64,000 bases of DNA from Escherichia phage vB_ESM-pEJ01: sequence record OP114734.1; one strand, given 5' to 3'. The notes beneath the pieces are model-generated. The model was not told the DNA's origin. It did not search any database and worked only from the letters and a program-made list of their open reading frames with translations. Positions 2,961-60,810 of this stretch are shown here, one piece after another. Each line of letters begins with the position of its first letter. Position 1 is the first letter of the stretch. The position numbers and the translations under genes were made by a program.

Positions 2961-3548
2961 CTAAATATCTAACCAAGACAAGTCAGATCCGCCCAAGATT
3001 TTTTCGACGGCGGATCTATTTTCTTGATGATATAAGTTAAAACATGGTATCCCATGTCTACGGGCAACATAAACAGCAATTCGAGTTCCTCCCGAAACGA
3101 TTCCATTAACTTCTTTCGCCCAGAATATCACACAATCTACAGGATCATCAAGTGTCTCACCTAAGACTTGAGCAACATTTCTAGAAAACAGATTTTGCAT
3201 GTATAACGGTATAGAACGAGGATTATCATAAACGTGTTCTAATTCATCCATCGCCAGATTCTTTTGTTCTAAGGTTTGCCATGCAATAACATCATGACCG
3301 TTATGCTTATGGTCATAAAACTTCCAAATTGGAATGAAAATTTTTCTATAATCTGGATCGTAATACTTCATGAAAGCATTGTCCATACCGTAAGCCCCTC
3401 CAGAATGCGCTACAACGCGATTTTCTGACAATACCCTCCCAATGGTACTAGCCATTATCAAAATGTCGTTAGGCGCTTTTCTAGAGCCTATCAAAGCACA
3501 TCTACGAAGTGGTTTTACTCCAAATAGATCTTGTAACTGGTCAAACAT
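2961..3548 (-). CDS. DprA/Smf-like Rossmann-fold (SLOG superfamily) protein
   Basis: Motifs HSGGAYGMDNAF, FSRNVAQVLG and SGGTRIAVYVA resemble the DprA/LOG Rossmann core; sits where T4 has rnlB. Confidence 0.4.
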   Translation of the reverse strand: MFDQLQDLFGVKPLRRCALIGSRKAPNDILIMASTIGRVLSENRVVAHSGGAYGMDNAFMKYYDPDYRKIFIPIWKFYDHKHNGHDVIAWQTLEQKNLAMDELEHVYDNPRSIPLYMQNLFSRNVAQVLGETLDDPVDCVIFWAKEVNGIVSGGTRIAVYVARRHGIPCFNLYHQENRSAVEKILGGSDLSWLDI

Positions 3549-3572
3549 AATATTTCCTCCATAGAAAGCAAT

Positions 3573-3601
3573 ATCATACTACAAGTTAATAACAAATGCA
3601 A
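3573..3601 (-). promoter_or_regulatory. Sigma70-type promoter (TTGCAT-N17-TATGAT on - strand)
   Basis: -35/-10 hexamers with 17 nt spacer about 25 nt upstream of the 2961..3548 start. Confidence 0.5.
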
Positions 3602-3668
3602 GTATCCGCGTAGCGGAAGCGAGCACAGCGAGCAATAAAAACACTTCCAGTAATTGATTAATAAATGT

Positions 3669-3727
3669 TCGAAACAAATTTTTATTATTCTATAAGATAA
3701 GTCTTCGTTTTGATCATAATTTAATCA
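3669..3727. repeat. ~60 bp repeat unit, copy 1 (CGAAACAAATTTTTATTATTCTATAAGATAAGTCTTCGTTTTGATCATAATTTAATCA)
   Basis: Near-identical to 3817..3876 and, inverted, to 55212..55270. Confidence 0.7.
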
Positions 3728-3816
3728 TACATGTAAAAACTACACAAAAGGATATCGCTTCGCGAACCCCTACGGAGTATAACATTTGTGTTACAATATG
3801 TAGTGATTAATAATTA

Positions 3817-3876
3817 ACCAAAGATACATTTTCTATGTTCTAAAGATCTTTCTTCGTTTTGATCATAATTTAATCA
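3817..3876. repeat. ~60 bp repeat unit, copy 2
   Basis: Direct repeat of copy 1; both share the 26-mer TCTTCGTTTTGATCATAATTTAATCA. Confidence 0.7.
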
Positions 3877-3934
3877 AACAGTATTAATATTGTGCACATG
3901 TAAACTAAAATTATGTTAATAACAGATACAAAAA

Positions 3935-3954
3935 AGCCGCCCAGAAGGACGGCT
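3935..3954 (-). terminator. Intrinsic terminator (- strand)
   Basis: Stem AGCCGTCC/GGGCGGCT with one G-U pair, then T-run on the - strand. Confidence 0.55.
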
Positions 3955-3962
3955 AATGTTAA

Positions 3963-4400
3963 TTATTTGTTGATAACGATCTGATTTCGGCGAATGGTAA
4001 CATTACTCTTAGAGATGATCAGATCATCCGGCACTACGTTAGTTTTGTATGGTTGGAATCGAACAAGCATCTGATTGCGTTTAGACCATTCCTTAATCTT
4101 GATTTCCATCTGGATATTGTTGCCTACGTGAGCAACCGCAATTTCACCTTTATTCTCATAGACCCACTTGCTGGTAACGTCTCCAGCAAAAGCCTTAATA
4201 ACTTGCAATGCTTCGTCGTATGCGGTAGAGCTGTGAACTTTCAGAAGGCCAGCCGTAGCAAGACGGGAGCAGGTGATCGCCGGAGATTGCCAAACATCAA
4301 CATTAATTTGCTCAATCAGAGTAACACCGCCCTGATCAACTGCTTTGAATGCTTCGAACATTGCCTTTTTCATTGCTACGTGGTTTTTACGGAATTTCAT
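3963..4400 (-). CDS. Hypothetical protein (145 aa)
   Basis: ORF with terminator immediately downstream; no recognisable motif. Confidence 0.6.
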   Translation of the reverse strand: MKFRKNHVAMKKAMFEAFKAVDQGGVTLIEQINVDVWQSPAITCSRLATAGLLKVHSSTAYDEALQVIKAFAGDVTSKWVYENKGEIAVAHVGNNIQMEIKIKEWSKRNQMLVRFQPYKTNVVPDDLIISKSNVTIRRNQIVINK

Positions 4401-5046: not shown

Positions 5047-5074
5047 ATTATAGGCATCTAAATCGCTCTGTCAA
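5047..5074 (-). promoter_or_regulatory. Sigma70-type early promoter (TTGACA-N16-TATAAT on - strand)
   Basis: Consensus hexamers immediately downstream of the hoc terminator. Confidence 0.55.
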
Positions 5075-5089
5075 GCACAAAAACAAAAA

Positions 5090-5109
5090 AGCCACCCCGA
5101 AGGATGGCT
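5090..5109 (-). terminator. Intrinsic terminator after hoc
   Basis: Stem AGCCATCC/GGGTGGCT followed by T-run on the - strand. Confidence 0.6.
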
Positions 5110-5120
5110 GATAGATTTCA

Positions 5121-10990: not shown

Positions 10991-11761
10991 ATGAATATTA
11001 TCCGAATAAAACTACCGGAAGGTGTGCAGAGATTTAAACCATTCACGGTAAAAGATTATAGAGATTTCCTTCTGGTGTCAACTGAAATTAAGATGAATCC
11101 AGAAGAAGAACAAACGATTCTTGATGAGCTATTAGAAGAAATATATCCAGACGTAGATCCGGCATTTCGTGAATATATTTTCCTGAATGTCTTTACTAGT
11201 TCAATTGGTAAAACTAAGATACCGCTTTGTTTTACTTGCCCGACTTGCAACAAAGAAAGAAGAATGTTGCTTAACTTACAGGTTGAAGCACTAAAACCAA
11301 TCGTTCTAGAGGCCGCAGGGCTTAAAATAACTTTCCGGTATGTTAAACCATCAACCGACTATGCAAAAACGTTTCTGGATGCGATAGAGCGTGTATCTGA
11401 TGGTATTAATGACTATCTATGGACTGAATTGCCGGAAGAAGTTAGAGAACAGGTTATCGATTCAATCTCATTTTCTGAATTTGAAGAAGTTGTTAAGCAG
11501 ATGCACACAATCAAGATCGAACAAAAGATATCTTGTTGTGAGAGTCATGACCTGAAATACATAGGTCTTCTTCCATTATTCAAATTGTTGTTGAATCCAG
11601 ATGAGTTATTCATCTTTTATCGAATAAACCATCTATTGGCAAAATCAAATTATTCTATCAGTGATCTTATGGACATGTTACCCGTCGAGAGAAACATTGC
11701 ACTGACACTGGTCGAGAAAGACGTAAAAGAGGCAAACAATGCAAAGAACGGGGTTTCCTAA
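10991..11761 (+). CDS. 51: Baseplate hub assembly catalyst gp51
   Basis: Size and synteny (26-51-27); Cys pairs CPTC and CCESHD. Confidence 0.75.
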   Translation: MNIIRIKLPEGVQRFKPFTVKDYRDFLLVSTEIKMNPEEEQTILDELLEEIYPDVDPAFREYIFLNVFTSSIGKTKIPLCFTCPTCNKERRMLLNLQVEALKPIVLEAAGLKITFRYVKPSTDYAKTFLDAIERVSDGINDYLWTELPEEVREQVIDSISFSEFEEVVKQMHTIKIEQKISCCESHDLKYIGLLPLFKLLLNPDELFIFYRINHLLAKSNYSISDLMDMLPVERNIALTLVEKDVKEANNAKNGVS

Positions 11762-20834: not shown

Positions 20835-20870
20835 TTGATACTCCTTAGTAGTTCGTTTCGGTATGTGTGC

Positions 20871-20900
20871 ATTATAGGGGATCACCGATCCCCCTGTCAA
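20871..20900 (-). promoter_or_regulatory. Early promoter (TTGACA-N18-TATAAT on - strand) with GGGGATC/GATCCCC palindrome in the spacer
   Basis: Plus strand reads ATTATAGGGGATCACCGATCCCCCTGTCAA. Confidence 0.6.
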
Positions 20901-20907
20901 CAACTTT

Positions 20908-21426
20908 TTAGTTATTTTTTAATTGTTCATCTTGCAATAATGCAATCACATGCTGGCGATGCTCTTCTGATTGAGGCACACCAAAAAAGTTTGTTTTGTA
21001 GAAATACTCTAATCGGTCTTCTCGTGTGCTCTCTTCCATCATGATCGCGGGTAGTCCGAGATTTCGGAAACGTCGCTTTTCTGCTGGCGTAAAATCACTG
21101 TAATACAACATAGAATCATCATTACCAGCAATGCTAAACTCATCCTTCATGAAAGAGAATATTGCGTTTAAACGCTGTTTACCGTCCACGATTTCGATCT
21201 CATAGCGAGAGCCATCATCAATCTTAGCCATTGCGATAGAGCCTACCGGAAAATCATTAATCATGTTTTCGATAAACATACGTTTGTTTTCGGTGTCCCA
21301 TACCAAAGGACGCTGATAATCTGGGTTCATGTTGATATAGCCATCTTCTAACCATGCCTCATAAACAGAGATGACAAAGTTTTTAGTATTGGTATAGTAA
21401 CGGCGTTTAGGCGTTAAACGGTTCAT
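20908..21426 (-). CDS. DUF262 / ParB-like nuclease-domain protein
   Basis: NPDYQRPLVWD and IVDGKQRLNAI (DGQQR-type motif); ATG at MNRL after AGGAG. Confidence 0.6.
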   Translation of the reverse strand: MNRLTPKRRYYTNTKNFVISVYEAWLEDGYINMNPDYQRPLVWDTENKRMFIENMINDFPVGSIAMAKIDDGSRYEIEIVDGKQRLNAIFSFMKDEFSIAGNDDSMLYYSDFTPAEKRRFRNLGLPAIMMEESTREDRLEYFYKTNFFGVPQSEEHRQHVIALLQDEQLKNN

Positions 21427-21427
21427 G

Positions 21428-21760
21428 TTATAGTCTCCTGAATGGATCATCACGTAAATCAATATCTTTTAAGAACTCATCCCATGAATGGCGGATATTA
21501 TTCTTAATTCTCCAGATAAGCGAAGGGATTGAACGCTCTCCCATCTGGAAGTATGGATCATATGATCCGTATGCCCAATATGCTACTACAATTCCGCAAT
21601 CAGTGCAATAGTATTCTATCTCGCTTGCTGGCGACCAAAGTCCATCAATATGATCACGGATCTTGCTTTCAATGTTATGACTATGGCAATCAGGGCAACG
21701 GATGCAATGACCTTGTTTGTCATAATTTGACGTTAGCGAATACTTAAACAATCTCATCAT
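21428..21760 (-). CDS. Zinc-ribbon protein (110 aa)
   Basis: CIRCPDC...CTDC (two CxxC pairs); start overlaps upstream stop. Confidence 0.5.
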   Translation of the reverse strand: MMRLFKYSLTSNYDKQGHCIRCPDCHSHNIESKIRDHIDGLWSPASEIEYYCTDCGIVVAYWAYGSYDPYFQMGERSIPSLIWRIKNNIRHSWDEFLKDIDLRDDPFRRL

Positions 21761-22473
21761 AGATCCTTATTGGCTTCAAATACTGCCTTTGCGAATCCTC
21801 GCGGGGTAAGTGACCTGATAGTCTTTGTTCTGGTTCCTTTCCCGCCTAGCTTAGAATGCTGTTTACTGTACCCTTTATTAATCGGCAACGGTTTCTTTTC
21901 TGGCATTATAAAGCCTTGTCCGGTCCATAAGCAAGTCTTTTTCGGGTACATATCACGGGCGGCAATATACTCAGGAAACGTAGGATGTATATCATCTTCC
22001 GGCAAATAACCGCCATATTCCCACGGGTGGAACATGTAATCAGGCTTACGCCACATGCTAGAGATAACGCTTACAGGATTCTCTATCATGTAGGGAACTC
22101 CTAGCCATTCACCCAAATAAGCGGTTATTTTAGCTGCCCGTACATCATGAACTTGAATCAACGGTCCTTGTTCTAGTTTCTTTCGTTCAAAGTGCGCAGC
22201 GCCACTAACAGCTAAATTGGTGCACGGTGGGAATGCAAAGATAATATCCGGTTTCCCCCATTCAAGGTCCATTGCTCTTTCCAGCCAGTTCAAATCAATC
22301 CAGGTGTTTACATAGGTAATGTTTTGATGTTCAAATCGGGTATTATATTTTTTGTATGTACCGTGGTCGCCATCGTCAGCATTAAAGCAGATCACCTTAT
22401 GACCTGCTTTAGCCCATTCTAACCCCATTATCCCCGATCCGTCAAAGTTGCAGAATATTAATTTTTGTTTCAC
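21757..22473 (-). CDS. C5-cytosine methyltransferase-like protein, truncated (238 aa)
   Basis: Motif I-like FCNFDGSG, motif IV-like FPPCTNLAVSGA (Pro-Cys), motif VI-like MIENP; no obvious target-recognition domain. Confidence 0.4.
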   Translation of the reverse strand: MKQKLIFCNFDGSGIMGLEWAKAGHKVICFNADDGDHGTYKKYNTRFEHQNITYVNTWIDLNWLERAMDLEWGKPDIIFAFPPCTNLAVSGAAHFERKKLEQGPLIQVHDVRAAKITAYLGEWLGVPYMIENPVSVISSMWRKPDYMFHPWEYGGYLPEDDIHPTFPEYIAARDMYPKKTCLWTGQGFIMPEKKPLPINKGYSKQHSKLGGKGTRTKTIRSLTPRGFAKAVFEANKDL

Positions 22474-22721
22474 GCTGCCCCCATTGGTTTGATAGTAACA
22501 GAATCTAAAAGACCTTTGTTAGCCAGTTCGCGGCAAGTTTTCAGATCCGCAACTTCCCAGCCAGCCGCAATCAGGTTATCGATTAGGCTGTTAGCAACTT
22601 CTTCGCTCATGAAAGAGCACTGTTTGCCGATGGTGTAGCGTACACGCTGTAATTTCAGTTTACGGAAGCCTTTAACGTTCAGGTCTTTAGCGATTTTCTT
22701 TGCGGTTTCGATGTTAGCCAT
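22470..22721 (-). CDS. Hypothetical small early protein (83 aa)
   Basis: First gene after promoter 22762..22790; coupled to downstream gene. Confidence 0.55.
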   Translation of the reverse strand: MANIETAKKIAKDLNVKGFRKLKLQRVRYTIGKQCSFMSEEVANSLIDNLIAAGWEVADLKTCRELANKGLLDSVTIKPMGAA

Positions 22722-22761
22722 TGTTTGATTCTCCTAAGTGGTATCTCGTCTTGATGGTTGT

Positions 22762-22790
22762 ATTGTAGGGGAGTTATCCTCCCCTGTCAA
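22762..22790 (-). promoter_or_regulatory. Early promoter (TTGACA-N17-TACAAT) with GGGGAG/CTCCCC palindrome
   Basis: Plus strand reads ATTGTAGGGGAGTTATCCTCCCCTGTCAA. Confidence 0.55.
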
Positions 22791-22804
22791 CACTTTTTAT
22801 AAAA

Positions 22805-22972
22805 TTATTTGTTAATTTCTGGTGCGTTGCTAGGATAGTAACCTTCTTTAACTCCGAGATATTTCGCAACCATCCCTACAATCTTCTGTGCTACTACAAT
22901 GTCAAATTTCAGATAATCTTCGCCGTGGGTTTCAATGATATATGCTTCACATGCTGCTTTAGTCTCGAACAT
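22805..22972 (-). CDS. Small early protein (55 aa), paralogue of 26083..26250
   Basis: MFETKAACEAYIIETHGEDYLKFDIVVAQK...; about 85% nt identity to the second copy. Confidence 0.6.
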   Translation of the reverse strand: MFETKAACEAYIIETHGEDYLKFDIVVAQKIVGMVAKYLGVKEGYYPSNAPEINK

Positions 22973-23005
22973 TTTGATTCTCCTATTTCGTTTCGTTATG
23001 TGTGT

Positions 23006-23034
23006 ATTATAGGGGATCTCCAGATCCCCGTCAA
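23006..23034 (-). promoter_or_regulatory. Early promoter (TTGACG-N17-TATAAT) with GGGGATC/GATCCCC palindrome
   Basis: Plus strand reads ATTATAGGGGATCTCCAGATCCCCGTCAA. Confidence 0.6.
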
Positions 23035-23048
23035 CAACTTTTTTAAAA

Positions 23049-23330
23049 TTATTCGTGATTAGTTTCGATGTTGTGCATTTTGCACCAGTTCAGCCAATCA
23101 CCCAGATCCTGATAGTTAATGCTTTTATCTGCTGCCATCGTTTTTGTCTTGATACCCATATGTGCGTTATGAGTAAGCATTTTTACAGTGAACTCAATTT
23201 TATCACCTTTAGCTTTAACATCAACCAGTTTGGTCCACTGGCTACCAGCGCCGCGAATGTTCATACCAACGATGTTTCCGATGTATGCTTCTTTGTTTTT
23301 CAGGATTTCGGTTGCTTTGATGAATTTCAT
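23049..23330 (-). CDS. Hypothetical small early protein (93 aa)
   Basis: ORF with own promoter and AGGAG ribosome-binding site. Confidence 0.55.
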   Translation of the reverse strand: MKFIKATEILKNKEAYIGNIVGMNIRGAGSQWTKLVDVKAKGDKIEFTVKMLTHNAHMGIKTKTMAADKSINYQDLGDWLNWCKMHNIETNHE

Positions 23331-23363
23331 TTTTGATTCTCCAGTTCGTTTCGGTATGTGTGT

Positions 23364-23392
23364 ATTATGCTATGTTCTTACTTTGGTGTCAA
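23364..23392 (-). promoter_or_regulatory. Early promoter (TTGACA-N17-CATAAT)
   Basis: Same upstream AAAAAGTTGTTGACA context as neighbours. Confidence 0.5.
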
Positions 23393-23400
23393 CAACTTTT

Positions 23401-23670
23401 TTAGATATTTTCAGAAATAAATTTTAAAACTTGACGTAAATGTTTCTCATCTTTGATAGTCGCCGGAAGTTCTTCTTTTACTTCCTGTGCAAGATAGATA
23501 TTTCCGTTCCAAGTGAAAGATCCGTCTTCGTTTACGCGATAGCTGAACATCCACTCGCAATCATTTTCGATTTCATATACACACAGAAGGGTGTAATCGT
23601 TAAAGCTATTGATTTCAAGGTCGAAGCCGTGACGTTTTGCAAAGTTGGTAGTGGTTTTAGTCAGCGCCAT
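23401..23670 (-). CDS. Hypothetical small early protein (89 aa)
   Basis: ORF with own promoter and AGGAG ribosome-binding site. Confidence 0.55.
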   Translation of the reverse strand: MALTKTTTNFAKRHGFDLEINSFNDYTLLCVYEIENDCEWMFSYRVNEDGSFTWNGNIYLAQEVKEELPATIKDEKHLRQVLKFISENI

Positions 23671-23710
23671 TGTTTGATTCTCCTAAGTGGTATCTCGTTT
23701 CGATGGGTGT

Positions 23711-23739
23711 ATTATGCTATAGGCGTGATCTGGTGTCAA
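23711..23739 (-). promoter_or_regulatory. Early promoter (TTGACA-N17-CATAAT)
   Basis: Plus strand reads ATTATGCTATAGGCGTGATCTGGTGTCAA. Confidence 0.5.
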
Positions 23740-23768
23740 CAACTTTTTTAAAATTTTATGCAATAAAA

Positions 23769-23788
23769 AGCCGACACTAAGGTCGGCT
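23769..23788 (-). terminator. Intrinsic terminator (- strand)
   Basis: Stem AGCCGAC/GTCGGCT with T-run on the - strand. Confidence 0.55.
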
Positions 23789-23795
23789 AATAAAA

Positions 23796-24104
23796 TCATT
23801 TAGACAAATAATCATTCAGTGCAATCCGGTCGGCATGTTCCGGCGTTACGTCAATCGCAATCAGTTTAACGCGTGCTTTCTTGCGACCTGGGTTTTCTCG
23901 TAACCAGTGCTCATGACCGTGAACATTTTTATACTGCGATGCTTCTTCGAAGGTACGGATCGGACCTGGGTAATCAGCGTAAAGGATCTCTAGGTCATCG
24001 GTGATGTAAAAATATACGTTGTAATTGCTGTTCTCTAGTTTAAGCAGAGACATTCGGAACATTGGGAGATTTTCGCGGGTAAATTCAAAGATATTATCTT
24101 TCAT
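23796..24104 (-). CDS. HxHW-family small protein, member 1 (102 aa)
   Basis: ATG at MKDNIFEF after GAGGA; motif HGHEHW...VKLIAIDV. Confidence 0.55.
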   Translation of the reverse strand: MKDNIFEFTRENLPMFRMSLLKLENSNYNVYFYITDDLEILYADYPGPIRTFEEASQYKNVHGHEHWLRENPGRKKARVKLIAIDVTPEHADRIALNDYLSK

Positions 24105-24153
24105 AGTATTATCCTCAATAGTTGGATGAAACGGGGGCTTAACGCCCCGTATA

Positions 24154-24441
24154 TTAAAACAGCCCTTCCTGTACACCGTAGTAGAGTTCATCGCTGATAA
24201 TTTCATTAATGCGACGGTGTGCATATTCCTGATTTGCGAAGTTGTCAGCAAGTTCTACTTTAGTTTCGCCGTCATGAGTCCATTTAGTGATAACTTTACC
24301 ATCTGCAAATTTGAAGTTGAACTCTTTAGCTACCGCATCGCGTACCAGACGTGCAAACTTGTTGTTGCGGATTGCATTGTCGGTTTCGTGTGCAGCGTGA
24401 GCGAATTTGTTAACTTTCAGAGTGATAGTAATGTATGCCAT
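24154..24441 (-). CDS. Hypothetical small early protein (95 aa), paralogue of 27727..28038
   Basis: Shared segment VRDAVAKEFNFK vs VRKALAKEFNTK. Confidence 0.5.
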   Translation of the reverse strand: MAYITITLKVNKFAHAAHETDNAIRNNKFARLVRDAVAKEFNFKFADGKVITKWTHDGETKVELADNFANQEYAHRRINEIISDELYYGVQEGLF

Positions 24442-24487
24442 AATTTGATTCTCCTAGTTAGAAAGTGTATCTCGTTTCGATGGGTGT

Positions 24488-24516
24488 ATTATGCTATACA
24501 CCCGATCTTATGTCAA
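24488..24516 (-). promoter_or_regulatory. Early promoter (TTGACA-N17-CATAAT) with GGGTGTA/TACACCC palindrome around the -10
   Basis: Plus strand reads ATTATGCTATACACCCGATCTTATGTCAA. Confidence 0.5.
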
Positions 24517-24522
24517 CACTTT

Positions 24523-24801
24523 TTATAAAATAATTTTTTGATATTTTTCTATGATGTTCGTGTAAGTCACATCAACCGCTATCACCGTTGCTTCGAATCC
24601 ACCGTTTAGCCAATGGCTATGGTCATGATCGTGAAAGAAACCAAGACCAGTACGAAGACCTTCTTTATATTCGGCGCGTACATTTAGATCATCATCGATA
24701 AACAGATAAAACCATGAATTTTTACTAGGATTGATGATACAACCTTTCAGATTAGGGAGAATATCACGACTAAGAATAAACTTATCACCTACTTTGAACA
24801 T
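24523..24801 (-). CDS. HxHW-family small protein, member 2 (92 aa)
   Basis: ATG at MFKVGDK after GAGGA; motif HDHDHSHW...VIAVDV. Confidence 0.55.
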   Translation of the reverse strand: MFKVGDKFILSRDILPNLKGCIINPSKNSWFYLFIDDDLNVRAEYKEGLRTGLGFFHDHDHSHWLNGGFEATVIAVDVTYTNIIEKYQKIIL

Positions 24802-24815
24802 AATATTTTCCTCAC

Positions 24816-25124
24816 TTATAAAGTTTGACCGTTGTTTTTCGCGTAATGCTGAATGCGTGCTTGATCTGCTTCCGCTGGTGATAGATTCCATGCAACCACT
24901 ACAACTTCTGACGCATCGTCATCCGTTTCTGATACCCAATGATTGTGATTCATACAGTTATTTGCTATCGAGTGAGCAAATGATTTCATCACTGGAGACG
25001 TATAATCATAGTAACGGATTTTCAGATTTTCATCAACATACAAGTAGATCGTATAAGGTTTATATTCAGTAACCAGTAACAGACAGTTACGCAATTCTGG
25101 GAAAATCTTTTTAGTTAATTTCAT
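24816..25124 (-). CDS. HxHW-family small protein, member 3 (102 aa)
   Basis: ATG at MKLTKK after GAGGA; motif NHNHW...VVVVAW. Confidence 0.5.
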   Translation of the reverse strand: MKLTKKIFPELRNCLLLVTEYKPYTIYLYVDENLKIRYYDYTSPVMKSFAHSIANNCMNHNHWVSETDDDASEVVVVAWNLSPAEADQARIQHYAKNNGQTL

Positions 25125-25125
25125 T

Positions 25126-25344
25126 TTATAATCCTCGGTCTCGGCTATAGTACACGGTACGCCATACAATTTCATGTTTCGTGTCGCTCCAGCACACGAT
25201 CTCATTTACTCTTAAATCTTTGTTATCAACAAAAGATGAACATTGTGACGCTTCTTTCATCATTTTATCTGCTGTTTTCTCATCAAATACAGCACAGATT
25301 TCTTTATACACTCGATAATCTTTGAATTGACTCTGAATACCCAT
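25126..25344 (-). CDS. Small Cys-containing protein (72 aa), paralogue of 25304..25567
   Basis: SQFKDYRVYKEICAVFDEKTADKMMKEASQCSSF vs SKFKEYKAYQQILRVYAPEFAEKMMEDASKCPSF. Confidence 0.45.
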   Translation of the reverse strand: MGIQSQFKDYRVYKEICAVFDEKTADKMMKEASQCSSFVDNKDLRVNEIVCWSDTKHEIVWRTVYYSRDRGL

Positions 25345-25567
25345 AATTAACACCATTCCAACCAATTGTTTTTGAGAAAACGTCTATCCACTGTTGAGTG
25401 TAGCATGTTTCTTTCCATGATACAATACGAGTGGAATAATGGTTTTTGTTTCCAGAAAAGGACGGGCATTTTGATGCATCTTCCATCATCTTTTCGGCGA
25501 ACTCTGGTGCGTATACTCGCAGGATCTGTTGATATGCTTTGTATTCTTTAAATTTGCTCATAATCAT
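25304..25567 (-). CDS. Small Cys-containing protein (87 aa), paralogue of 25126..25344
   Basis: See paralogue; overlaps neighbours by a few codons. Confidence 0.45.
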   Translation of the reverse strand: MIMSKFKEYKAYQQILRVYAPEFAEKMMEDASKCPSFSGNKNHYSTRIVSWKETCYTQQWIDVFSKTIGWNGVNYGYSESIQRLSSV

Positions 25568-25826
25568 TCACTACCTTATCAGCTTCTTTTGTTGTTTTTA
25601 CATCAACTGCGATAACTCGTAAAGGTTCGTCATGGTTCCACCAGTGGTCATGAATATCAGCTTGTGATTTATCACCAAAGGAATCACGAATATCATTTTT
25701 ACATTTATAGCTAATGTGACCTTCATAGTCAACATAAAGGTAATTATCGAAAATCGGCGTTTTTAAGATCATACCGAAAAATCTTTCTTTGTGTGTCTTA
25801 TCCAGCGTTACAGTAATTCGCATCAT
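25548..25826 (-). CDS. HxHW-family small protein, member 4 (92 aa)
   Basis: Motif HDHWWNHDEPLRVIAVDV; AGAGGA ribosome-binding site. Confidence 0.55.
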   Translation of the reverse strand: MMRITVTLDKTHKERFFGMILKTPIFDNYLYVDYEGHISYKCKNDIRDSFGDKSQADIHDHWWNHDEPLRVIAVDVKTTKEADKVVNDYEQI

Positions 25827-25838
25827 AATATATTCCTC

Positions 25839-26018
25839 TTAGAAAGGGATGGTCATTTCTTGAGCTTGTACATTCTCGTTAGGATTAAACTTCATCCAAC
25901 CGATATTGTCTACCAGCATATGTACATTTTTATCATATCCTACGTGAGTAGTCAACACTAAATGTGCTTTACCTTCAACGATGATTTCCATGTACTTCTG
26001 AACTTCGATAGCTTTCAT
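25839..26018 (-). CDS. Hypothetical small early protein (59 aa)
   Basis: ATG after GGAGAATCAAA leader; MKAIEVQKYMEIIVEGKAHLV... Confidence 0.45.
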   Translation of the reverse strand: MKAIEVQKYMEIIVEGKAHLVLTTHVGYDKNVHMLVDNIGWMKFNPNENVQAQEMTIPF

Positions 26019-26050
26019 TTTGATTCTCCGTTTGTTGTCTTGATGGGAGT

Positions 26051-26079
26051 ATCTTACTACTCCCTTTAATCATTGTCAA
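26051..26079 (-). promoter_or_regulatory. Early promoter (TTGACA-N17-TAAGAT) inside GGGAGTA/TACTCCC palindrome
   Basis: Plus strand reads GGGAGTATCTTACTACTCCCTTTAATCATTGTCAA. Confidence 0.5.
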
Positions 26080-26082
26080 CTA

Positions 26083-26250
26083 TTATTTGTTAATTTCCGG
26101 TGCGTTGCTCGGATAGTAACCTTCTTTAACACCTAGATATTTTGCAACCATTCCGGTGATCTTCTGTGCTACTACGATATCGAATTTCAGGTAGTCTTCA
26201 CCGTGGTTTGCTACAATGTATGCTTCGCATTCTGCTTTAGTCTGGAACAT
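26083..26250 (-). CDS. Small early protein (55 aa), paralogue of 22805..22972
   Basis: MFQTKAECEAYIVANHGEDYLKFDIVVAQK... Confidence 0.6.
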   Translation of the reverse strand: MFQTKAECEAYIVANHGEDYLKFDIVVAQKITGMVAKYLGVKEGYYPSNAPEINK

Positions 26251-26284
26251 TTTTGATTCTCCTATATCTCGTTGGTATGTGTGC

Positions 26285-26313
26285 ATTATAGGGGATCGGT
26301 GATCCCCTGTCAA
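26285..26313 (-). promoter_or_regulatory. Early promoter (TTGACA-N17-TATAAT) with GGGGATC/GATCCCC palindrome
   Basis: Plus strand reads ATTATAGGGGATCGGTGATCCCCTGTCAA. Confidence 0.6.
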
Positions 26314-26320
26314 CAACTTT

Positions 26321-26623
26321 TTATTCTTCATCTTTATCTTGATATGCGTACTTCATAAATTTGTCTGCTACTTTGTCCGCGTTTTCAGGTTCTACGTCTG
26401 ACGCTAGGACAACAGCTAGTTCGGTTTTGTCGTTTCCATCATACCAATGATTATGAGTGTCGTTTTCTTCGATATAAAACGAATCGTTTGGAGTTGTGCG
26501 ACAATATACGTCTAAATTCCCATCGATATAAAAGATCCAATCCGAATACAAAATGATTGTTTTAGCAAGATTTTTATTGTCTCTTACAAAAGGTTCCGCG
26601 ACAAATAGCTTAGTTTGTTCCAT
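26321..26623 (-). CDS. HxHW-family small protein, member 5 (100 aa)
   Basis: ATG at MEQTKLF after GAGGA; motif THNHWYDG...LAVVLASDV. Confidence 0.55.
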   Translation of the reverse strand: MEQTKLFVAEPFVRDNKNLAKTIILYSDWIFYIDGNLDVYCRTTPNDSFYIEENDTHNHWYDGNDKTELAVVLASDVEPENADKVADKFMKYAYQDKDEE

Positions 26624-26639
26624 AATATTTTCCTCAAAA

Positions 26640-26828
26640 TTATACAGCTTCGTAAACTTCCCAATGTTCAGCACCAACACGCTTAACGAAAAGGTTTTCT
26701 TTGATGTTATTCATAAACGTCTGGATGGATTTAATGCGGTTGGAAGGTTTCCAGTCTTCGTTGGCATTGCGGTGATACATAATATTACCAGTTCGCTTAT
26801 ATTCAGCAACCATTTTAAGACCACACAT
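26640..26828 (-). CDS. Hypothetical small early protein (62 aa)
   Basis: ATG after GAGGA ribosome-binding site. Confidence 0.45.
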   Translation of the reverse strand: MCGLKMVAEYKRTGNIMYHRNANEDWKPSNRIKSIQTFMNNIKENLFVKRVGAEHWEVYEAV

Positions 26829-26884
26829 AATATTATCCTCAATTTGTGGGAGAGTATTACCCTCCCGATTATTGTTATACTACA

Positions 26885-27187
26885 TTACGCAAAATGGCGT
26901 GTCAATGCTTCTTTTGCTGTTCCGCTAAGATTCTCGATCTCTCCTGGCATAACATCAACCGCCAGAACTTCTACAACATCCTCTGATCCTAACCAGTGAG
27001 TATGACCTTTGTAGAACTTGATATCCCATTTATCGCTATCGCTAGCCCACCACACATCACCGTCTATAAAGTTGATGTAAAGCACACTACGACACATTGA
27101 ATTAGTTACTTTCAATACTGCGCCTTTCATCTCTTCCACGGTATGGTCTTCCATTTTGAAGACCTCGCCTACCTTAACTTTTGCCAT
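26885..27187 (-). CDS. HxHW-family small protein, member 6 (100 aa)
   Basis: ATG at MAKVKVG; motif GHTHW...VLAVDV. Confidence 0.55.
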   Translation of the reverse strand: MAKVKVGEVFKMEDHTVEEMKGAVLKVTNSMCRSVLYINFIDGDVWWASDSDKWDIKFYKGHTHWLGSEDVVEVLAVDVMPGEIENLSGTAKEALTRHFA

Positions 27188-27188
27188 G

Positions 27189-27455
27189 TTACATGCTCCG
27201 AATATGTTTAGATGCATCTTCCAGTTCGTCGATAGTGACACTGTGAGCCAGTAAGTGTACTGGTTGTGGTTCTTCACCTTCCATAGTATTGATCAGATGA
27301 CCGTTTCCTGGGTGGAATGTATCGTTGCCGTTCCAAATAGCATACACATCATCTTCTGTTACGTAGATAATAAGTCCAATCGGTGATTCTGGTAATTGAA
27401 AAATTTTACCCACTGCATCTTTGCGATTGTTTACGATATCTTTTACTGTCTTCAT
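27189..27455 (-). CDS. Small early protein (88 aa), possible divergent HxHW-family member
   Basis: FHPGNGHLIN...VHLLAHSV in the equivalent position; GAGAGG ribosome-binding site. Confidence 0.45.
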   Translation of the reverse strand: MKTVKDIVNNRKDAVGKIFQLPESPIGLIIYVTEDDVYAIWNGNDTFHPGNGHLINTMEGEEPQPVHLLAHSVTIDELEDASKHIRSM

Positions 27456-27474
27456 TTAGTTACCTCTCGTTAAA

Positions 27475-27654
27475 TTACATCACAATCACGCCAGCCGTTG
27501 AAAGTTGATGTTTCAACTGAGCATTTTCTGCTACTGTCAAATCAATGATTTCTTGTGACGCTGCAATCATATAGCCATTGGTGATATTGTTTTGCATCAG
27601 TTCAATGGTCTCTTCGTTGTAGCGGATTTTAGCGATGATTTCGTTGAAGTTCAT
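27475..27654 (-). CDS. Hypothetical small early protein (59 aa)
   Basis: ATG after AGGAGAATCAATT leader; MNFNEIIAKIRYNEETIELMQ... Confidence 0.45.
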   Translation of the reverse strand: MNFNEIIAKIRYNEETIELMQNNITNGYMIAASQEIIDLTVAENAQLKHQLSTAGVIVM

Positions 27655-27688
27655 AATTGATTCTCCTAGTTCTTTTCGGTATGTGTGT

Positions 27689-27718
27689 AGTATAGGGGAG
27701 TTTAACCTCCCCTGTCAA
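27689..27718 (-). promoter_or_regulatory. Early promoter (TTGACA-N18-TATACT) with GGGGAG/CTCCCC palindrome
   Basis: Plus strand reads AGTATAGGGGAGTTTAACCTCCCCTGTCAA. Confidence 0.55.
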
Positions 27719-27726
27719 CAACTTTT

Positions 27727-28038
27727 TTAAAGTTTTTCCATGATAACGGTCATAATTACATCTTCTGCGCGAGCGGTCAGATTATCGGCGTCAGCATGTG
27801 GGCGGTTGGTTGTTACAGAGATAACACCGTTGCGCACTGGTTTAATATTGATATCAAGATGGTCCGCGAAACGTTCGCCAGTTACAGAATGAATTTTGGT
27901 GTTAAATTCTTTTGCCAGTGCCTTGCGAACTTCACGAATCAGGGTAGCGTTTTTCAGTTGGTTCTCCGCGCTCATGGTCTTCTGGGTGTTCATGGTTCCG
28001 TCGAAGTCAATCATTGGCAGCGTTACGATGTATTTCAT
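27727..28038 (-). CDS. Hypothetical small early protein (103 aa), paralogue of 24154..24441
   Basis: Shared AKEFN segment. Confidence 0.5.
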   Translation of the reverse strand: MKYIVTLPMIDFDGTMNTQKTMSAENQLKNATLIREVRKALAKEFNTKIHSVTGERFADHLDINIKPVRNGVISVTTNRPHADADNLTARAEDVIMTVIMEKL

Positions 28039-28083
28039 TTTTGATTCTCCGTTTAAGAAAGTATGTTTCGTTTTGATGTGTGT

Positions 28084-28112
28084 AGTATAGGGGATATGTG
28101 ATCCCCTGTCAA
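28084..28112 (-). promoter_or_regulatory. Early promoter (TTGACA-N17-TATACT) with GGGGAT/ATCCCC palindrome
   Basis: Plus strand reads AGTATAGGGGATATGTGATCCCCTGTCAA. Confidence 0.55.
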
Positions 28113-28125
28113 CAACTTTTTTGAA

Positions 28126-28602
28126 TTATTTTTCTTGATGCTCGCGCTCGTACTTTTCGAAATAAAATTCTACTGGCTGGTCATGAATTGACAGCAAGCC
28201 AAAGCGTTTAGCCGCTCGCAATCCCATATTGCGCTGAATGTACTTCTGGAAGTTCTCGCGTATACACTTACGCCAGTATTCTAAGCCCATACAGCTTTTA
28301 TAAAGATTGCATTGCACACACGCCGGATTCATGTTATCAAGTATATCATGTTCCGGTTTATGCATTCCTACAACCTTATACTTCCACGATCCATCATCAT
28401 TACGGGCAATTCGTCCATTTTCATCATAGACTACCTTTGAGCGTCGCAATACTGGTTTGATGTGGTCTGCGTGCCAGCGATCCCCTAGTTCCTCGCCACA
28501 ATAGGCACAACGTCCACCGTATTTCATTTTCAGGATCTGGCGTTGCTCTTTCTTTGACAATTTTTTAGGTTTAGGGGCTTTCGCCCCTTCATTATCACAC
28601 AT
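28126..28602 (-). CDS. HNH endonuclease (158 aa)
   Basis: CAYCGEELGDRWHADHIKPV...CVQCN zinc-HNH motif. Confidence 0.7.
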   Translation of the reverse strand: MCDNEGAKAPKPKKLSKKEQRQILKMKYGGRCAYCGEELGDRWHADHIKPVLRRSKVVYDENGRIARNDDGSWKYKVVGMHKPEHDILDNMNPACVQCNLYKSCMGLEYWRKCIRENFQKYIQRNMGLRAAKRFGLLSIHDQPVEFYFEKYEREHQEK

Positions 28603-36523: not shown

Positions 36524-36556
36524 CTTGATACTCCTTAGTTGTTTTGGTATGGGAGT

Positions 36557-36585
36557 ATCTTACTACTCCCGTGATATGCTGTCAA
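36557..36585 (-). promoter_or_regulatory. Early promoter (TTGACA-N17-TAAGAT) inside GGGAGTA/TACTCCC palindrome
   Basis: Plus strand reads GGGAGTATCTTACTACTCCCGTGATATGCTGTCAA. Confidence 0.5.
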
Positions 36586-36593
36586 CTGCTTTT

Positions 36594-36743
36594 TTATGCA
36601 ACCGCAAACATCAACATTTGAACATTCTTGGCTGTCTGGCTTTCAAAGTTCTGACATTCTTTGATAATGTCCTCTACTTTCTCGCCGGAGATCTCCGCGT
36701 AAGTTTCGATTGCCATTTTCAGTACCGAGTCAAAGTTGTTCAT
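36594..36743 (-). CDS. Hypothetical small protein (49 aa)
   Basis: ATG after AGGAGAATCAAA leader; MNNFDSVLKMAIETYAEISGEK... Confidence 0.4.
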   Translation of the reverse strand: MNNFDSVLKMAIETYAEISGEKVEDIIKECQNFESQTAKNVQMLMFAVA

Positions 36744-36783
36744 TTGATTCTCCTTAAAGTGTATTTCGTTTCGATGGGGGGGT

Positions 36784-36812
36784 ATATTACTACCCCCGTT
36801 TCATGCTGTCAA
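36784..36812 (-). promoter_or_regulatory. Early promoter (TTGACA-N17-TAATAT) with GGGGGTA/TACCCCC palindrome
   Basis: Plus strand reads GGGGGGGTATATTACTACCCCCGTTTCATGCTGTCAA. Confidence 0.5.
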
Positions 36813-37031
36813 CTACTTTTTAATGACAAGTTCGAATTTTGCTACCTTGCGTCCTCGTTTATTGAAAGCAACCCACGGACGGTTTTCAATGTAGAACAAT
36901 TCTTCGCCAATAATGAATACTGGCTGATTGTAAAGGCGACCCATCAGGTCACGCTGGCGAATGGTAGTAGATTCGTATACTTCGCCTACTACAAAGTGCT
37001 TGCTGATAGAGTCGGTGCAAGTAAATTTCAT
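36813..37031 (-). CDS. Hypothetical small protein (72 aa)
   Basis: ORF with own promoter and ribosome-binding site. Confidence 0.5.
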   Translation of the reverse strand: MKFTCTDSISKHFVVGEVYESTTIRQRDLMGRLYNQPVFIIGEELFYIENRPWVAFNKRGRKVAKFELVIKK

Positions 37032-37064
37032 TTTGATTCTCCTTTGTTTCGTTTCGATGTGGGT

Positions 37065-37093
37065 ATATTACTACCACCGTTATTCAGTGTCAA
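37065..37093 (-). promoter_or_regulatory. Early promoter (TTGACA-N17-TAATAT)
   Basis: Plus strand reads ATATTACTACCACCGTTATTCAGTGTCAA. Confidence 0.5.
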
Positions 37094-37100
37094 CTACTTT

Positions 37101-37319
37101 TTACTTGTTGTATTCATTCCACCATTGGGTTAGCTTATCAATTATTTTTGTGTTTCTATCCAACTTCTCCCACCGTTTTCTAGGGTTTATCAACCGGAAT
37201 AGGTAAGGTGTACTTGTTAAGTGAACTCGGTCAATGTAGTGATTGATGTACTGCTTTTCGATTCTAAGTTTCATCTTTTTACGATGAAAATATGCAATGA
37301 CTTGTTCTTCTGTTTCCAT
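37101..37319 (-). CDS. Hypothetical small basic protein (72 aa)
   Basis: ORF with own promoter and ribosome-binding site. Confidence 0.5.
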   Translation of the reverse strand: METEEQVIAYFHRKKMKLRIEKQYINHYIDRVHLTSTPYLFRLINPRKRWEKLDRNTKIIDKLTQWWNEYNK

Positions 37320-39437: not shown

Positions 39438-39634
39438 TATCCGACAACCTCAAAACATTTATCATCAGGAAGAATCGCCCATTCTACACCGTATTCATCC
39501 TCGACGTAGTAGCAAGTCCCATCATGTCGAGCATCATATTCATCACCAACAACAAAGCTATCAGCTAGTTCAAAATCTACAGCAACACATTTAATTTGGT
39601 CATAATAAAATCCTCACTTGTTTTTGATGGTTGT

Positions 39635-39663
39635 ATTATAGCGGGGATTTCTCCCCGCGTCAA
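39635..39663 (-). promoter_or_regulatory. Promoter (TTGACG-N17-TATAAT) with GCGGGGA/TCCCCGC palindrome
   Basis: Plus strand reads ATTATAGCGGGGATTTCTCCCCGCGTCAA. Confidence 0.5.
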
Positions 39664-39671
39664 CACTTATT

Positions 39672-48492: not shown

Positions 48493-49440
48493 TTAGAACT
48501 CACCAATTTTCTGCAACATTTTAACTAACGCATTTGTTACAAAATAGTTATAAATTTTACCGCGTGGTGCTGGTTTAGATTTTTCCCATGACTCCAGAAT
48601 CTGATTCTGAATATCATCTGGGATGTAATCGAAATCAATAAGTTCGCGGTTTTCGTCAAAGCGTCGTGCTTCTTCCTCTGTCATCAAAGACTTTGGATCT
48701 TCGGCATCGAAAATTTGCTCTAACCATTTGGTCGCAATTGGTTTAGCTCGTTCCCCTTCCAGTCGTGAGATAATGAAATCACTACGGCACTTGACAGAAG
48801 CTACACCGTCTTTTGCGTCACCCTTAACACATTTTACCATAAGGTCTTTGTAAGGGCTACCATATTTGCATTTCTTCCATGCTTTCTGTACTGGCGCCCA
48901 CTGTTTCACGTTTTTGTATTTGTGCAACTGTGTGTAGTCACCATCGCCGGAGTTGATCAGCACCTGACGACCTTCTACAGAAAACTTTTTAGTTAACACA
49001 GCGATTATATCATCTGCCTCAACTTTGTCAACCTTAATAACGTGATAAGGCATGTTCTCTTTAAACTCTTCGGTGATCTTATTGATCGCGGCAAAGATCA
49101 TCTCCCAATCACGCGGATCTGCGTCTCGTTTTTCCTTACGGTTGCGTTTATAGTAAGGGGCGATATCACGTCGCCAGTAACCTTTACTTGAATCAAAAGC
49201 AAGTACCGTAATTGGGTATTGTTCTTTGAATTTTGTCATATTATAACGCATGGTGTCAAGGATAAGATGACGGATCATGCCTTCATTAATAGGATCTTCC
49301 GGTTTAAAGGTATGCGAGATAGTAGCAATCATAAGCTGCGACATATCAATCAAATGCACACCTTCCGGTAGTTTATCTTCTGGATCATCGAAGAAATCAT
49401 TAAGTGTAGCGGTAGTTTTTGTAAACGGGTTATACGTCAT
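48493..49440 (-). CDS. rnh: RNase H (5'-3' exonuclease / FEN family)
   Basis: 315 aa; acidic active-site clusters (VLAFDSS, EADDIIA, NSGDGDYTQL); synteny before gene 34. Confidence 0.88.
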   Translation of the reverse strand: MTYNPFTKTTATLNDFFDDPEDKLPEGVHLIDMSQLMIATISHTFKPEDPINEGMIRHLILDTMRYNMTKFKEQYPITVLAFDSSKGYWRRDIAPYYKRNRKEKRDADPRDWEMIFAAINKITEEFKENMPYHVIKVDKVEADDIIAVLTKKFSVEGRQVLINSGDGDYTQLHKYKNVKQWAPVQKAWKKCKYGSPYKDLMVKCVKGDAKDGVASVKCRSDFIISRLEGERAKPIATKWLEQIFDAEDPKSLMTEEEARRFDENRELIDFDYIPDDIQNQILESWEKSKPAPRGKIYNYFVTNALVKMLQKIGEF

Positions 49441-55164: not shown

Positions 55165-55175
55165 CATTTTTAACA

Positions 55176-55205
55176 AGCCGATCCATGTGGTCGGCTTTAT
55201 TTTTA
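55176..55205 (+). terminator. Intrinsic terminator after gene 35
   Basis: Stem AGCCGATCC/GGTCGGCT followed by TTATTTTTAT. Confidence 0.55.
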
Positions 55206-55211
55206 TACAGT

Positions 55212-55313
55212 TGGTTAAATTGTAACCAAAACGAAGAAAGATCTTTAGAATAATAGAAAATTTGTTTCGGTTAAAAAATAGCCAGTGCCTACGGCACGTC
55301 GCGAAGCGATATT
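55212..55313. repeat. Inverted copy of the 3669..3876 repeat unit plus shared CGCGAAGCGATAT segment
   Basis: Reverse complement of 55212..55270 matches 3817..3876 over about 55 nt; 55289..55313 matches 3750..3773 in inverse. Confidence 0.65.
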
Positions 55314-55325
55314 TTGTTAACATTC

Positions 55326-55333
55326 TATAAATA
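55326..55333 (+). promoter_or_regulatory. T4-type late promoter box TATAAATA upstream of gene 36
   Basis: Exact TATAAATA about 34 nt upstream of the gene 36 ATG. Confidence 0.6.
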
Positions 55334-55366
55334 CTCGGAACTATAACTAATTTTTGAGGTTACTTT

Positions 55367-59834: not shown

Positions 59835-59875
59835 GGAAAATTCCCAGGGAAGGGAACTACTAAGGAGAAACGGCT

Positions 59876-60115
59876 ATGGTCTATAATATCGTCATTGGTG
59901 CTTTGTCTAATTTCGGAATGAAATTATTGTCAAAGTTAATTAGTGAAAAGATGCTCACTAAAATTTTCTTCTATTGCGCTCGTCGTCTTGCGGCTTATAC
60001 CAATACGCCAATTGATGATCGTTTTGTGGAAGAACTTTATAAGGAGTTTAATAAAGATCAGTCAGAAGATAGTAACGAGCAAGATAAACCTAGTGATAGT
60101 CAACTACCTAAATAA
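59876..60115 (+). CDS. Hypothetical small protein (79 aa) in the gp38 position
   Basis: AGGAG ribosome-binding site; hydrophobic N-terminus, acidic C-terminus; too small for gp38. Confidence 0.45.
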   Translation: MVYNIVIGALSNFGMKLLSKLISEKMLTKIFFYCARRLAAYTNTPIDDRFVEELYKEFNKDQSEDSNEQDKPSDSQLPK

Positions 60116-60805: not shown

Positions 60806-60810
60806 CTTAA

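Follow-up and report, generated by a model that had tools for sequence, protein, structure and literature searches.

A conserved intergenic palindrome repeated in Krischvirus genomes and present in a temperate Escherichia coli prophage

Introduction

Two long non-coding gaps in the genome of Escherichia phage vB_ESM-pEJ01 (OP114734.1) contain copies of one and the same sequence, which raises the question of what this repeat is and what it does there. The gaps, at 3549-3962 and 55165-55366 of the 64,000 nucleotides (nt) analysed here (the window), had been pointed out in an initial annotation that described a repeated unit of about 60 bp and offered a protein-binding site, a recombination hotspot or a small RNA gene as explanations. 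We find that the repeat is the core of a larger intergenic cassette, and conclude that this cassette is very probably constrained in its fold and shared by horizontal exchange.

By identity to phage records, the window is Krischvirus DNA, i.e., DNA of an RB49-like T4-type coliphage. At 95% identity or more, 58 phage records are matched both by the 700 bases surrounding the first site and by the 202-base gap at the second; all 58 are Krischvirus, including RB49, phi1, JSE, GEC-3S, and kvi.

Results

The repeat is almost certainly real and specific. Its degenerate 23-nt core, TTAAATTRTRAYCAAAACGAAGA, has three matches in the window as compared to 0.00 expected (100 shuffles), and a covariance model finds exactly four units in RB49 and three in the window, with no other match there. 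Shuffles and covariance model together rule out chance or low complexity; the units are 69-80% A+T, and their similarity is specific rather than that of AT-rich sequence in general. Two units (u1 and u2) stand in the first gap, u1 149 nt downstream of u2 in the sense direction, and are, as had been described, direct repeats sharing the 26-mer TCTTCGTTTTGATCATAATTTAATCA (exact at 3702-3727 and 3851-3876, + strand). The inverted third copy near 55 kb (u3) was likewise recovered (Table 1), and a fourth (u4) was found outside the window, between gene 3 and RB49p130. Units u3 and u4 share 95% identity over 87 nt, though they are ~87 kb apart; u1/u2 and u3/u4 are old paralogues, about 75-80% identical. 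When oriented as their neighbouring genes, the three window copies align over about 95 nt. The length first proposed was too short, the hairpin core being 73 nt and the cassette with its GC hairpins about 100-125 nt. The second shared segment that had been reported holds for the 14-mer ATATCGCTTCGCGA (3752-3765(+) and 55299-55312(-); two matches vs. 0.03 expected) but not for CCTACGG, which is a small palindromic hairpin and no shared oriented segment, reading CC-GTA-GG after one unit and GTGCC-TAC-GGCAC after the other. By covariance-model search, the family comprises four copies per Krischvirus genome and one per prophage (see below), with nothing more in 300 kb.

The core of the unit is an AT-rich imperfect palindrome consisting of an outer (lower) helix, an internal loop, an inner (upper) helix and a variable apex. 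The outer helix pairs TG(A/G)TTA with TA(A/G)(T/C)CA, typically TGATTA with TAATCA, and the internal loop (about 6 + 6-9 nt) is conserved. Between N-CAAAACGAAGA and TCTTT-N-TTTTG-N, the inner helix forms 12-14 pairs with one or two mismatches, its core being CAAAACGAAGA/TCTTTNTTTTG; the apex, about 21 nt long, has ATCTTTAGAAT at its centre in most copies. Every unit is followed downstream by one or two GC mini-hairpins with 3-nt loops and preceded by a terminator (u2, u3) or another GC hairpin. The second mini-hairpin after u3 is terminator-like, with ATTTTGTT coming next, and the hairpin labelled P5 reads GTCGC-AAA-GCGAC in u4, its stem kept and extended and its loop changed.

Conservation of this fold was examined in a MAFFT alignment of 19 distinct units, with slid controls: 85% of cells are paired, compared to 30-51% in the controls, and at pair 24-72 the combinations C-G, A-U, G-U, and G-C all occur with zero mismatch. 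Two divergent prophage variants, L155 (NZ_CP116044.1) and L156 (NZ_CM136169.1), keep TGATTA/TAATCA but build the inner helix from other bases, CAAACGU(A)/(U)ACGUUUG replacing CGAAGA/UCUUU, and their apex has been replaced and lengthened to 24-26 nt. A covariance model built without these two still finds them (E = 6e-7 and 7e-4). In a model-fitted alignment, which leans towards structure, 9 of 20 pairs show changes on both sides as compared to 0-2 in slid controls. Compensatory changes thus keep both helices in the divergent prophage variants, which indicates that the fold is under selection, and the flanks of prophage variants and old paralogues are unalignable. The nested hairpin is the minimum free energy (MFE) RNA structure for u1, u3 and the prophage copy, three of the four contexts. 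An alternative fold of two local hairpins was less well supported than the nested one and is broken in several prophage variants, L156 among them. A strand bias hinted at by G-U pairs disappeared once the energies of both strands were compared: the sense strand is the more stable in just 14 of 26 sequences, and such a lack of strand preference is expected of a duplex palindrome.

The unit has a second home in a temperate E. coli phage. Besides Krischvirus contigs, a pattern scan of IMG/VR yielded about 30 loci on proviral contigs of 20-45 kb with a related unit, tttgattaaatcatcatcaaaacgaagaagtatctttagaatataagaatctttcttttggagaaataataatcagg, that is about 80% identical in nucleotide sequence to the Krischvirus unit. 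In a reverse BLAST of the prophage region against all phage records (2.3 Gb), only Krischvirus was matched (E down to 1e-9), and BLAST gave no plasmid match to this region. Out of 5,426 complete E. coli genomes, 57-58 carry the prophage unit, each in one copy and invariably on the chromosome. In strain ETEC1703 it belongs to a ~38 kb prophage inserted in ycdX, whose genes include a large serine recombinase, a lambda-gpA-type terminase, a Rha-family regulator and homing-endonuclease-like genes; the best match of the terminase among isolated phages is 44% in amino acids (aa), so it has no close relative there. One edge of a 1.4 kb region that is free of open reading frames (ORFs) is occupied by the unit. 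Between divergent promoters, this region carries about ten TTTCAGGGGCAAAAAT iterons in a ~21-nt phase and four TCTAGAATCATCTAGTAAC repeats, at L083 20284-20510 and 20705-20893, as well as many GC triloop hairpins; it is probably an origin or control region. For the prophage region, RNAalifold returns an outer helix and a four-hairpin architecture.

Genes are shared between the two phage groups as well. The UvsW helicase of the prophage is 80% identical to that of RB49 over 510 residues (81% in nucleotides; L084 17871-19361), its gp37-like tail fibre is 44% identical over 919 aa (L083 5702-9226), its homologue of RB49p194 46%, and a GIY-YIG C-terminal domain is also common to both. The unit, UvsW and the tail fibre being common to both, we conclude that the two groups exchange DNA. 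A shared DNA-binding protein was considered and rejected, since tblastn of all prophage ORFs against RB49 gave only the matches just listed. Three IMG/VR pattern scans, the third with a pattern that was too loose, revealed no further hosts beyond Krischvirus and one prophage group among the matches listed; a scan of one genome per GTDB species likewise gave no further host of the element, and a covariance-model screen of 80 loci again returned only Krischvirus and the one prophage group.

Two other similarities were seen between these phages. A terminator family of about 44 nt (AAAAAAGCCNCCC-GAAGG-NGGCT) occurs in the window at 3914-3957, 5069-5112, and 23748-23791, and one copy of it matches the prophage over 34 nt with 97% identity (L083 4195-4228 vs. 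RB49 98968-99000). The GC-rich strings GCGGAAGCGAGCACAGCGAGCAA (window 3605-3640(+)) and GAGCGAAGCGAGCGAGCAA (prophage, L083 20436-20462(+)) are alike and lie in opposite orientation relative to the unit; their likeness may be due to chance.

Comparison with related phages bore out the suggestion that the unit marks a rearrangement boundary. Krischvirus LF73P4 (OZ035795.1) carries an inversion of ~87 kb relative to RB49, and both of its junctions are copies of the cassette, namely those at gene 3 and gene 36. One junction, at about 141.5 kb (L152 3001-3110), leads from the gene 5-2-p130 side through the unit into gene 36 (L152 1-3110 corresponds to RB49 65882 to 62775, and L152 3001-4842 to RB49 150000-151844); the reciprocal one, at about 56.8 kb (L154 3744-3852), joins gene 3 and a GTCGC-AAA-GCGAC hairpin to the gene-35 terminator (L154 1-3852 corresponds to RB49 59031-62882, and L154 3744-5501 to RB49 150109 to 148351). 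Across the LF73P4 unit (gene-36 copy, left edge), identity to RB49 steps from 98.7% on the left to 86% on the right. All other records compared by hand keep the RB49 spacing and relative strand at both window loci. AV108, phiS, and the IMG/VR contig L041 have an inserted homing-endonuclease cassette of ~600 bp, which starts right after P5 of the gene-3 copy and reaches up to the promoter of gene 3 (L277 620-1215 in AV108, OR352938.1). The inversion junctions, the identity step and the homing-endonuclease insertions support the recombination hotspot among the explanations first offered. It is likely, judging from one assembly, that recombination between copies has happened; the edges of the cassette are used as joints, and in a T4-type phage homology alone may explain this.

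Several smaller observations concern the same boundaries. At the homing-endonuclease insert, the junction CAATTG/ACA creates a TTGACA -35 hexamer for the inserted gene. The 14-mer TATTTTTATACAGT is found 5' of both the gene-36 and the gene-3 copies (window 55198-55211, RB49 62890-62903) in direct genome orientation, though the units themselves are inverted; it may have been left behind by an exchange that took place earlier within the 5' palindrome of the unit. The independent records of kvi (MN850615.1) and Skers (MW748999.1) have the same base 1 (GTAATAAATAAAACGGG), 19 nt from the gene-3 copy; the Skers record ends, at base 154769, with ...TATTTTTATACA, and that of kvi is without about 700 nt, including gene 3 and the gene-3 cassette copy. 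This common start may be a matter of convention, the result of an assembly that broke at the repeat, or a physical end.

All copies sit in spacers without predicted transcription. In the annotation of RB49, the first gap separates RB49p165 from RB49p164 (DprA-like) on the minus strand of the gene 24-hoc region, and the second lies between the homologues of genes 35 and 36. Units u2 and u1 are located past a terminator, and u3 is flanked by a terminator on its 5' side and a late promoter on its 3' side. That the 55-kb copy stands next to a late promoter was correctly recognised from the start: TATAAATA lies 42 nt past the unit and 34 nt before the gene-36 ATG. Unit u4 takes up the interval between genes 3 and p130, which stand back to back and each have a AATAAATA motif, and the prophage copy is flanked by divergent sigma-70 promoters that are separated by about 840 bp. 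A promoter scan of u1-u4 and the prophage copy found no promoter within or ahead of any unit on the sense strand, and the DprA-like gene lacks its own canonical late or early promoter.

Several candidate signals within the units were considered and rejected. For a sigma-70 promoter on either strand, the -35-like hexamers TTGATC/TTGGTT and the -10-like hexamer TAGAAT are, by eye, unconserved across copies, and the scanner was negative; the late promoter TATAAATA is absent from every unit. A leader peptide can be read in u2 (MIKTKKDL and a stop, from ATG ATC AAA ACG AAG...), but u3, u4 and the prophage copies have, by eye, no start codon in frame. A tRNA or other known RNA was rejected as well, Rfam 15 giving no match in the window at the gathering threshold and, at permissive E-values (E up to 5), only noise in both regions. 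As to an intrinsic terminator (a GC-rich hairpin followed by a T-run), the 73-nt unit does not itself qualify; P5 of u3 and u4 was marked as terminator-like, the hairpins after u1, u2, and the prophage unit were not.

Table 1. Repeat units and surrounding features, in window coordinates unless a record is named
Feature	Position	Strand	Remarks
Unit u1, tandem second copy	3655..3727	-	Covariance-model match 3642-3737(-), 70.7 bits, E = 2.5e-10
Unit u2, 73-nt imperfect palindrome	3804..3876	-	Covariance-model match 3791-3886(-), 78 bits, E = 8e-12
Unit u3, upstream of gene-36 homologue	55212..55284	+	Covariance-model match 55202-55297(+), 95.9 bits, E = 2.5e-15
Unit u4, fourth copy, outside window	RB49 NC_005066.1 62785-62889 (= L004 12785-12889)	-	Gap upstream of gene 3
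Lower helix of u2	TGATTA 3876-3871 with TAATCA 3809-3804	-	
Lower helix of u3			TGGTTA with TAGCCA
GC-rich block after u1	3605..3640	-	TCCGC-TAC-GCGGA (3617-3605) and direct repeat GCTCGC-TGT-GCTCGC
GC mini-hairpins after u2	3755..3777	-	CTCC-GTA-GGGG (3777-3767), TCGC-GAA-GCGA (3765-3755), then U/T-rich tract
GC mini-hairpins after u3	55285..55310	+	GTGCC-TAC-GGCAC (55285-55297), GTCGC-GAA-GCGAT (55298-55310)
Intrinsic terminator of upstream gene (ORF 3963-4400)	3935..3954	-	Insulates u2/u1 gap
Intrinsic terminator after gene-35 homologue	55175..55197	+	9-bp stem; insulates u3
T4-type late promoter of gene-36 homologue	55326..55333	+	TATAAATA
DprA-like gene, RB49p164 homologue	2961..3548	-	Downstream of u1
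ORF, RB49p165 homologue	3963-4400		Upstream of u2
Gene-35 homologue	54025-55164		
Gene-36 homologue	55367-56857		

The window contains other repeats. A 43-nt direct repeat occurs at 55032-55074 and 56578-56620, towards the 3' ends of the homologues of genes 35 and 36, and at 58094-58136 inside the gene-37 homologue, and is presumably a protein motif shared by tail-fibre subunits. A perfect 20-nt inverted repeat, AAACTACCGGAAGGTGTGCA, has its arms 38 kb apart, at 11009-11028 and 49355-49374.

Discussion

We tentatively favour the reading that the element is a portable intergenic cassette that acts in cis as a DNA hairpin or cruciform and provides replication or recombination with an entry site and a homology linker. 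Because promoters are absent, the contexts are shielded and both strands fold alike, an element acting at the level of DNA is preferred, without strong conviction. On this reading, the fold would form in DNA and recruit replication or recombination proteins, and selection would be for that function. The cassette would then act in cis as DNA rather than as a transcript: where the duplex is unwound or negatively supercoiled, it could extrude as a hairpin or cruciform, and the extruded structure would offer a branched or single-stranded entry point to the phage replication-recombination machinery, like a T4 origin or recombination hotspot, with the triloop GC hairpins clamping its downstream side. 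Since the copies are near-identical, they would also serve as homology linkers, and exchange between them would invert the intervening genome and join modules of different ancestry. In T4, oriE is found close to gene 5, oriF within uvsY, and oriG within gene 34; by annotation, the genes carrying these origins are no more than about 1-6 kb from the three Krischvirus loci, a correspondence drawn post hoc.

Several points weigh against such a DNA-level role. The stability of the fold is modest, with a consensus structure of -6 to -12 kcal/mol and z-scores of -0.3 to -1 in three of four copies, and with DNA parameters the MFE favours small local hairpins. Read on the sense strand, several pairs are G-U, and two features would be in keeping with an RNA: the four Krischvirus copies are all oriented like the gene that follows, and P5 of u3 and u4 is terminator-like, albeit with only 5 pairs. 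T4-type hyper-recombination would act on any 90-nt repeat, so that the inversion proves homology and not function, and it was seen in one of the 58 records, the unannotated assembly of LF73P4. The likeness to T4 origins, finally, is one of position only, the MotA promoter being absent here.

Alternatively, one could envision a structured RNA, which we regard as possible though doubtful. It would be transcribed by read-through of the upstream terminator or from an unrecognised promoter and consist of an AU-rich irregular hairpin and two GC hairpins, the last a terminator, serving as an intercistronic processing or stability element (RNase III-type, as in T7 intergenic regions) or as a small RNA of ~130 nt. 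This would account for the compensatory changes and G-U pairs, the common orientation with the next gene, the nested hairpin as RNA MFE in three of four contexts, the outer helix and four hairpins of the prophage region, and the P5 hairpin with its T-run in u3 and u4, and the 10-mer ATCRAAACGA is common to the 5' leaders of RB49 early transcripts (7 matches vs. 0.73 expected). However, no copy has a promoter upstream, two contexts lie between divergent promoters and two directly past strong terminators, fold z-scores are weak, and no Rfam family matches. With no promoter in or before the copies, no Rfam match and no strand bias in fold stability, the small RNA gene of the initial annotation is unsupported, although the terminator-like last GC hairpin of two copies leaves it some probability.

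It is unlikely that the unit is a selfish or neutral palindromic repeat, MITE/ERIC-like or a left-over linker, that has been spread and homogenised between co-infecting phages and resident prophages without a phage function. Its conservation would then reflect recent transfer and gene conversion, consistent with its multiple copies, its terminal inverted repeats (TGATTAA...TTAATCA), the near-identity of u3 and u4 despite their distance, its occurrence in unrelated phages that also swap genes, its location at rearrangement and insertion boundaries, and its narrow distribution. There are, however, neither target-site duplications nor a transposase, and each genome has just four copies, whose syntenic positions are fixed in 58/58 Krischvirus records; moreover, the fold is kept by compensatory change in old paralogues and prophage variants while the flanks are unalignable, which argues for purifying selection.

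A paired operator, with the arms as inverted sites for a host or phage regulator of the adjacent late or divergent promoters and the covariation as co-evolution of half-site and protein, is distinctly improbable: although units lie 40-170 bp upstream of promoters and conservation extends beyond pairing to the primary sequence itself, both in the outer arms (TGATTAAA / TTAATCA) and in CAAAACG, the spacing of the arms varies (apex of 21 to 24-26 nt, 3-nt insertions), which together with compensatory change indicates a stem-loop and not a fixed two-site operator, and prophage and RB49 share no DNA-binding protein by tblastn of all prophage ORFs. As host-factor sites, the arms fit no consensus of IHF, FNR, Fur, ArcA, H-NS, PurR, or Cra (by eye), and GATC/Dam sites, present in the Krischvirus copies, are absent from most prophage copies.

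RB49 has neither motA nor middle promoters (PMC1524935). For MotA-less T4-like phages of this group, the cassette, which is small, conserved, fold-constrained and present at three fixed loci, provides a concrete candidate for a cis-acting site or origin. Non-coding DNA, and not just genes (UvsW, tail fibre), is thus common to a lytic phage of the T4 type and a temperate one of E. coli, which bears on how phage modules move. An inverted repeat of roughly 90-110 bp can flip more than half of a T4-type genome, and such inversion is relevant to the assembly, comparison and engineering of therapeutic Krischvirus isolates.

Comparison with known systems

Crossover sites of the hix/gix type consist of 26 bp, with two 12-bp inverted half-sites around a 2-bp core, and are accompanied by a serine invertase gene. 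The unit was rejected as such a site, its arms being 21-26 nt apart and no invertase being annotated in RB49; the large serine recombinase encoded by the prophage is located at its end and serves as the integrase. Extra-stable DNA mini-hairpins of the d(GCGAAGC) type (Hirao et al.) have a GNA triloop closed by C-G. Exactly this form is seen in the flanking hairpins TCGC-GAA-GCGA, CC-GTA-GG, CCC-GAA-GGG, and GCCAC-GCA-GTGGC, which are, however, accessory clamps and not the repeat itself; because a GNA loop results on either strand, no strand-specific role can be read from them.

Like REP/BIME, ERIC and Correia or MITE-like elements, the unit is a short, non-coding, imperfect palindrome, multi-copy and intergenic, that can fold as DNA or RNA and is a substrate for recombination. 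It differs in being phage-borne with so few copies at fixed positions and in showing no similarity to those families in Rfam or BLAST searches. Its terminal inverted repeats are conserved in all lineages, as in MITE or ERIC elements, but no duplication of a target site flanks it and its loci are identical in all 58 Krischvirus records.

The T4 origins oriF (uvsY) and oriG (34) double as recombination hotspots (Kreuzer and colleagues). T4 origins consist of a MotA-dependent middle promoter, which makes the primer RNA, and a downstream unwinding element; a plasmid bearing such an origin replicates autonomously in infected cells, and the UvsW helicase acts on the R-loops. The cassette resembles oriF and oriG in that each genome has several AT-rich, recombination-associated, cis-acting sites, located where late genes occupy the map, and the partner prophage carries UvsW; it differs in having no promoter, and the unit showed no sequence similarity to T4, matches among phage records being to Krischvirus only. 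In its most specific form, which we consider rather improbable, this comparison would make the cassette the replication-origin or recombination-initiation site of the MotA-less RB49 group, of a cruciform/hairpin type and not the R-loop promoter type; it would have been exchanged along with UvsW with a temperate E. coli phage that uses it beside its own iteron array, and the inverted gene-3 and gene-36 copies would give rise to two genome isomers differing by the ~87 kb inversion.

The closest comparison within these phages is with the promoter-early stem-loop (PeSL) cassettes of RB49 and phi1, repeated intergenic "mobile regulatory cassettes" with stem-loops that are found at the boundaries of variable modules and for which a role in shuffling modules through recombination has been proposed (Arbiol et al. 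2010, PMC2839356; Comeau et al. 2014, PMC4122927). The element described here is absent from the PeSL papers and from the five-genome comparison, no searchable paper describes it, and no Krischvirus transcriptome paper was found. In the window, repeat families D1-D5 are typical PeSLs, and many PeSL copies are present at 20839-28131, 36536-37108, 39624-39674, and 63423-63771 on the minus strand, built of GTTGACA, a GGGG...CCCC stem-loop, TATAAT, and the leader ATCGAAACGA, a family already described (Arbiol 2010). PeSLs have a near-consensus sigma-70 promoter (TTGACA-N17-TATAAT), whereas none is present in or next to any unit; their GC stem-loop stands between -35 and -10, whereas the GC hairpins of the unit are downstream of it; and PeSLs are located in hyperplastic early regions, the unit in late-gene clusters. 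The unit is, furthermore, a 73-nt palindrome that also occurs in a temperate siphovirus-like prophage. Nevertheless, it too is conserved, repeated, intergenic and stem-loop-bearing in the same phages, its core shares the 10-mer ATCRAAACGA with the PeSL leader, and, as the LF73P4 junctions, the accompanying step in identity and the homing-endonuclease insertion after P5 illustrate, it is likewise found at the boundaries of variable modules.

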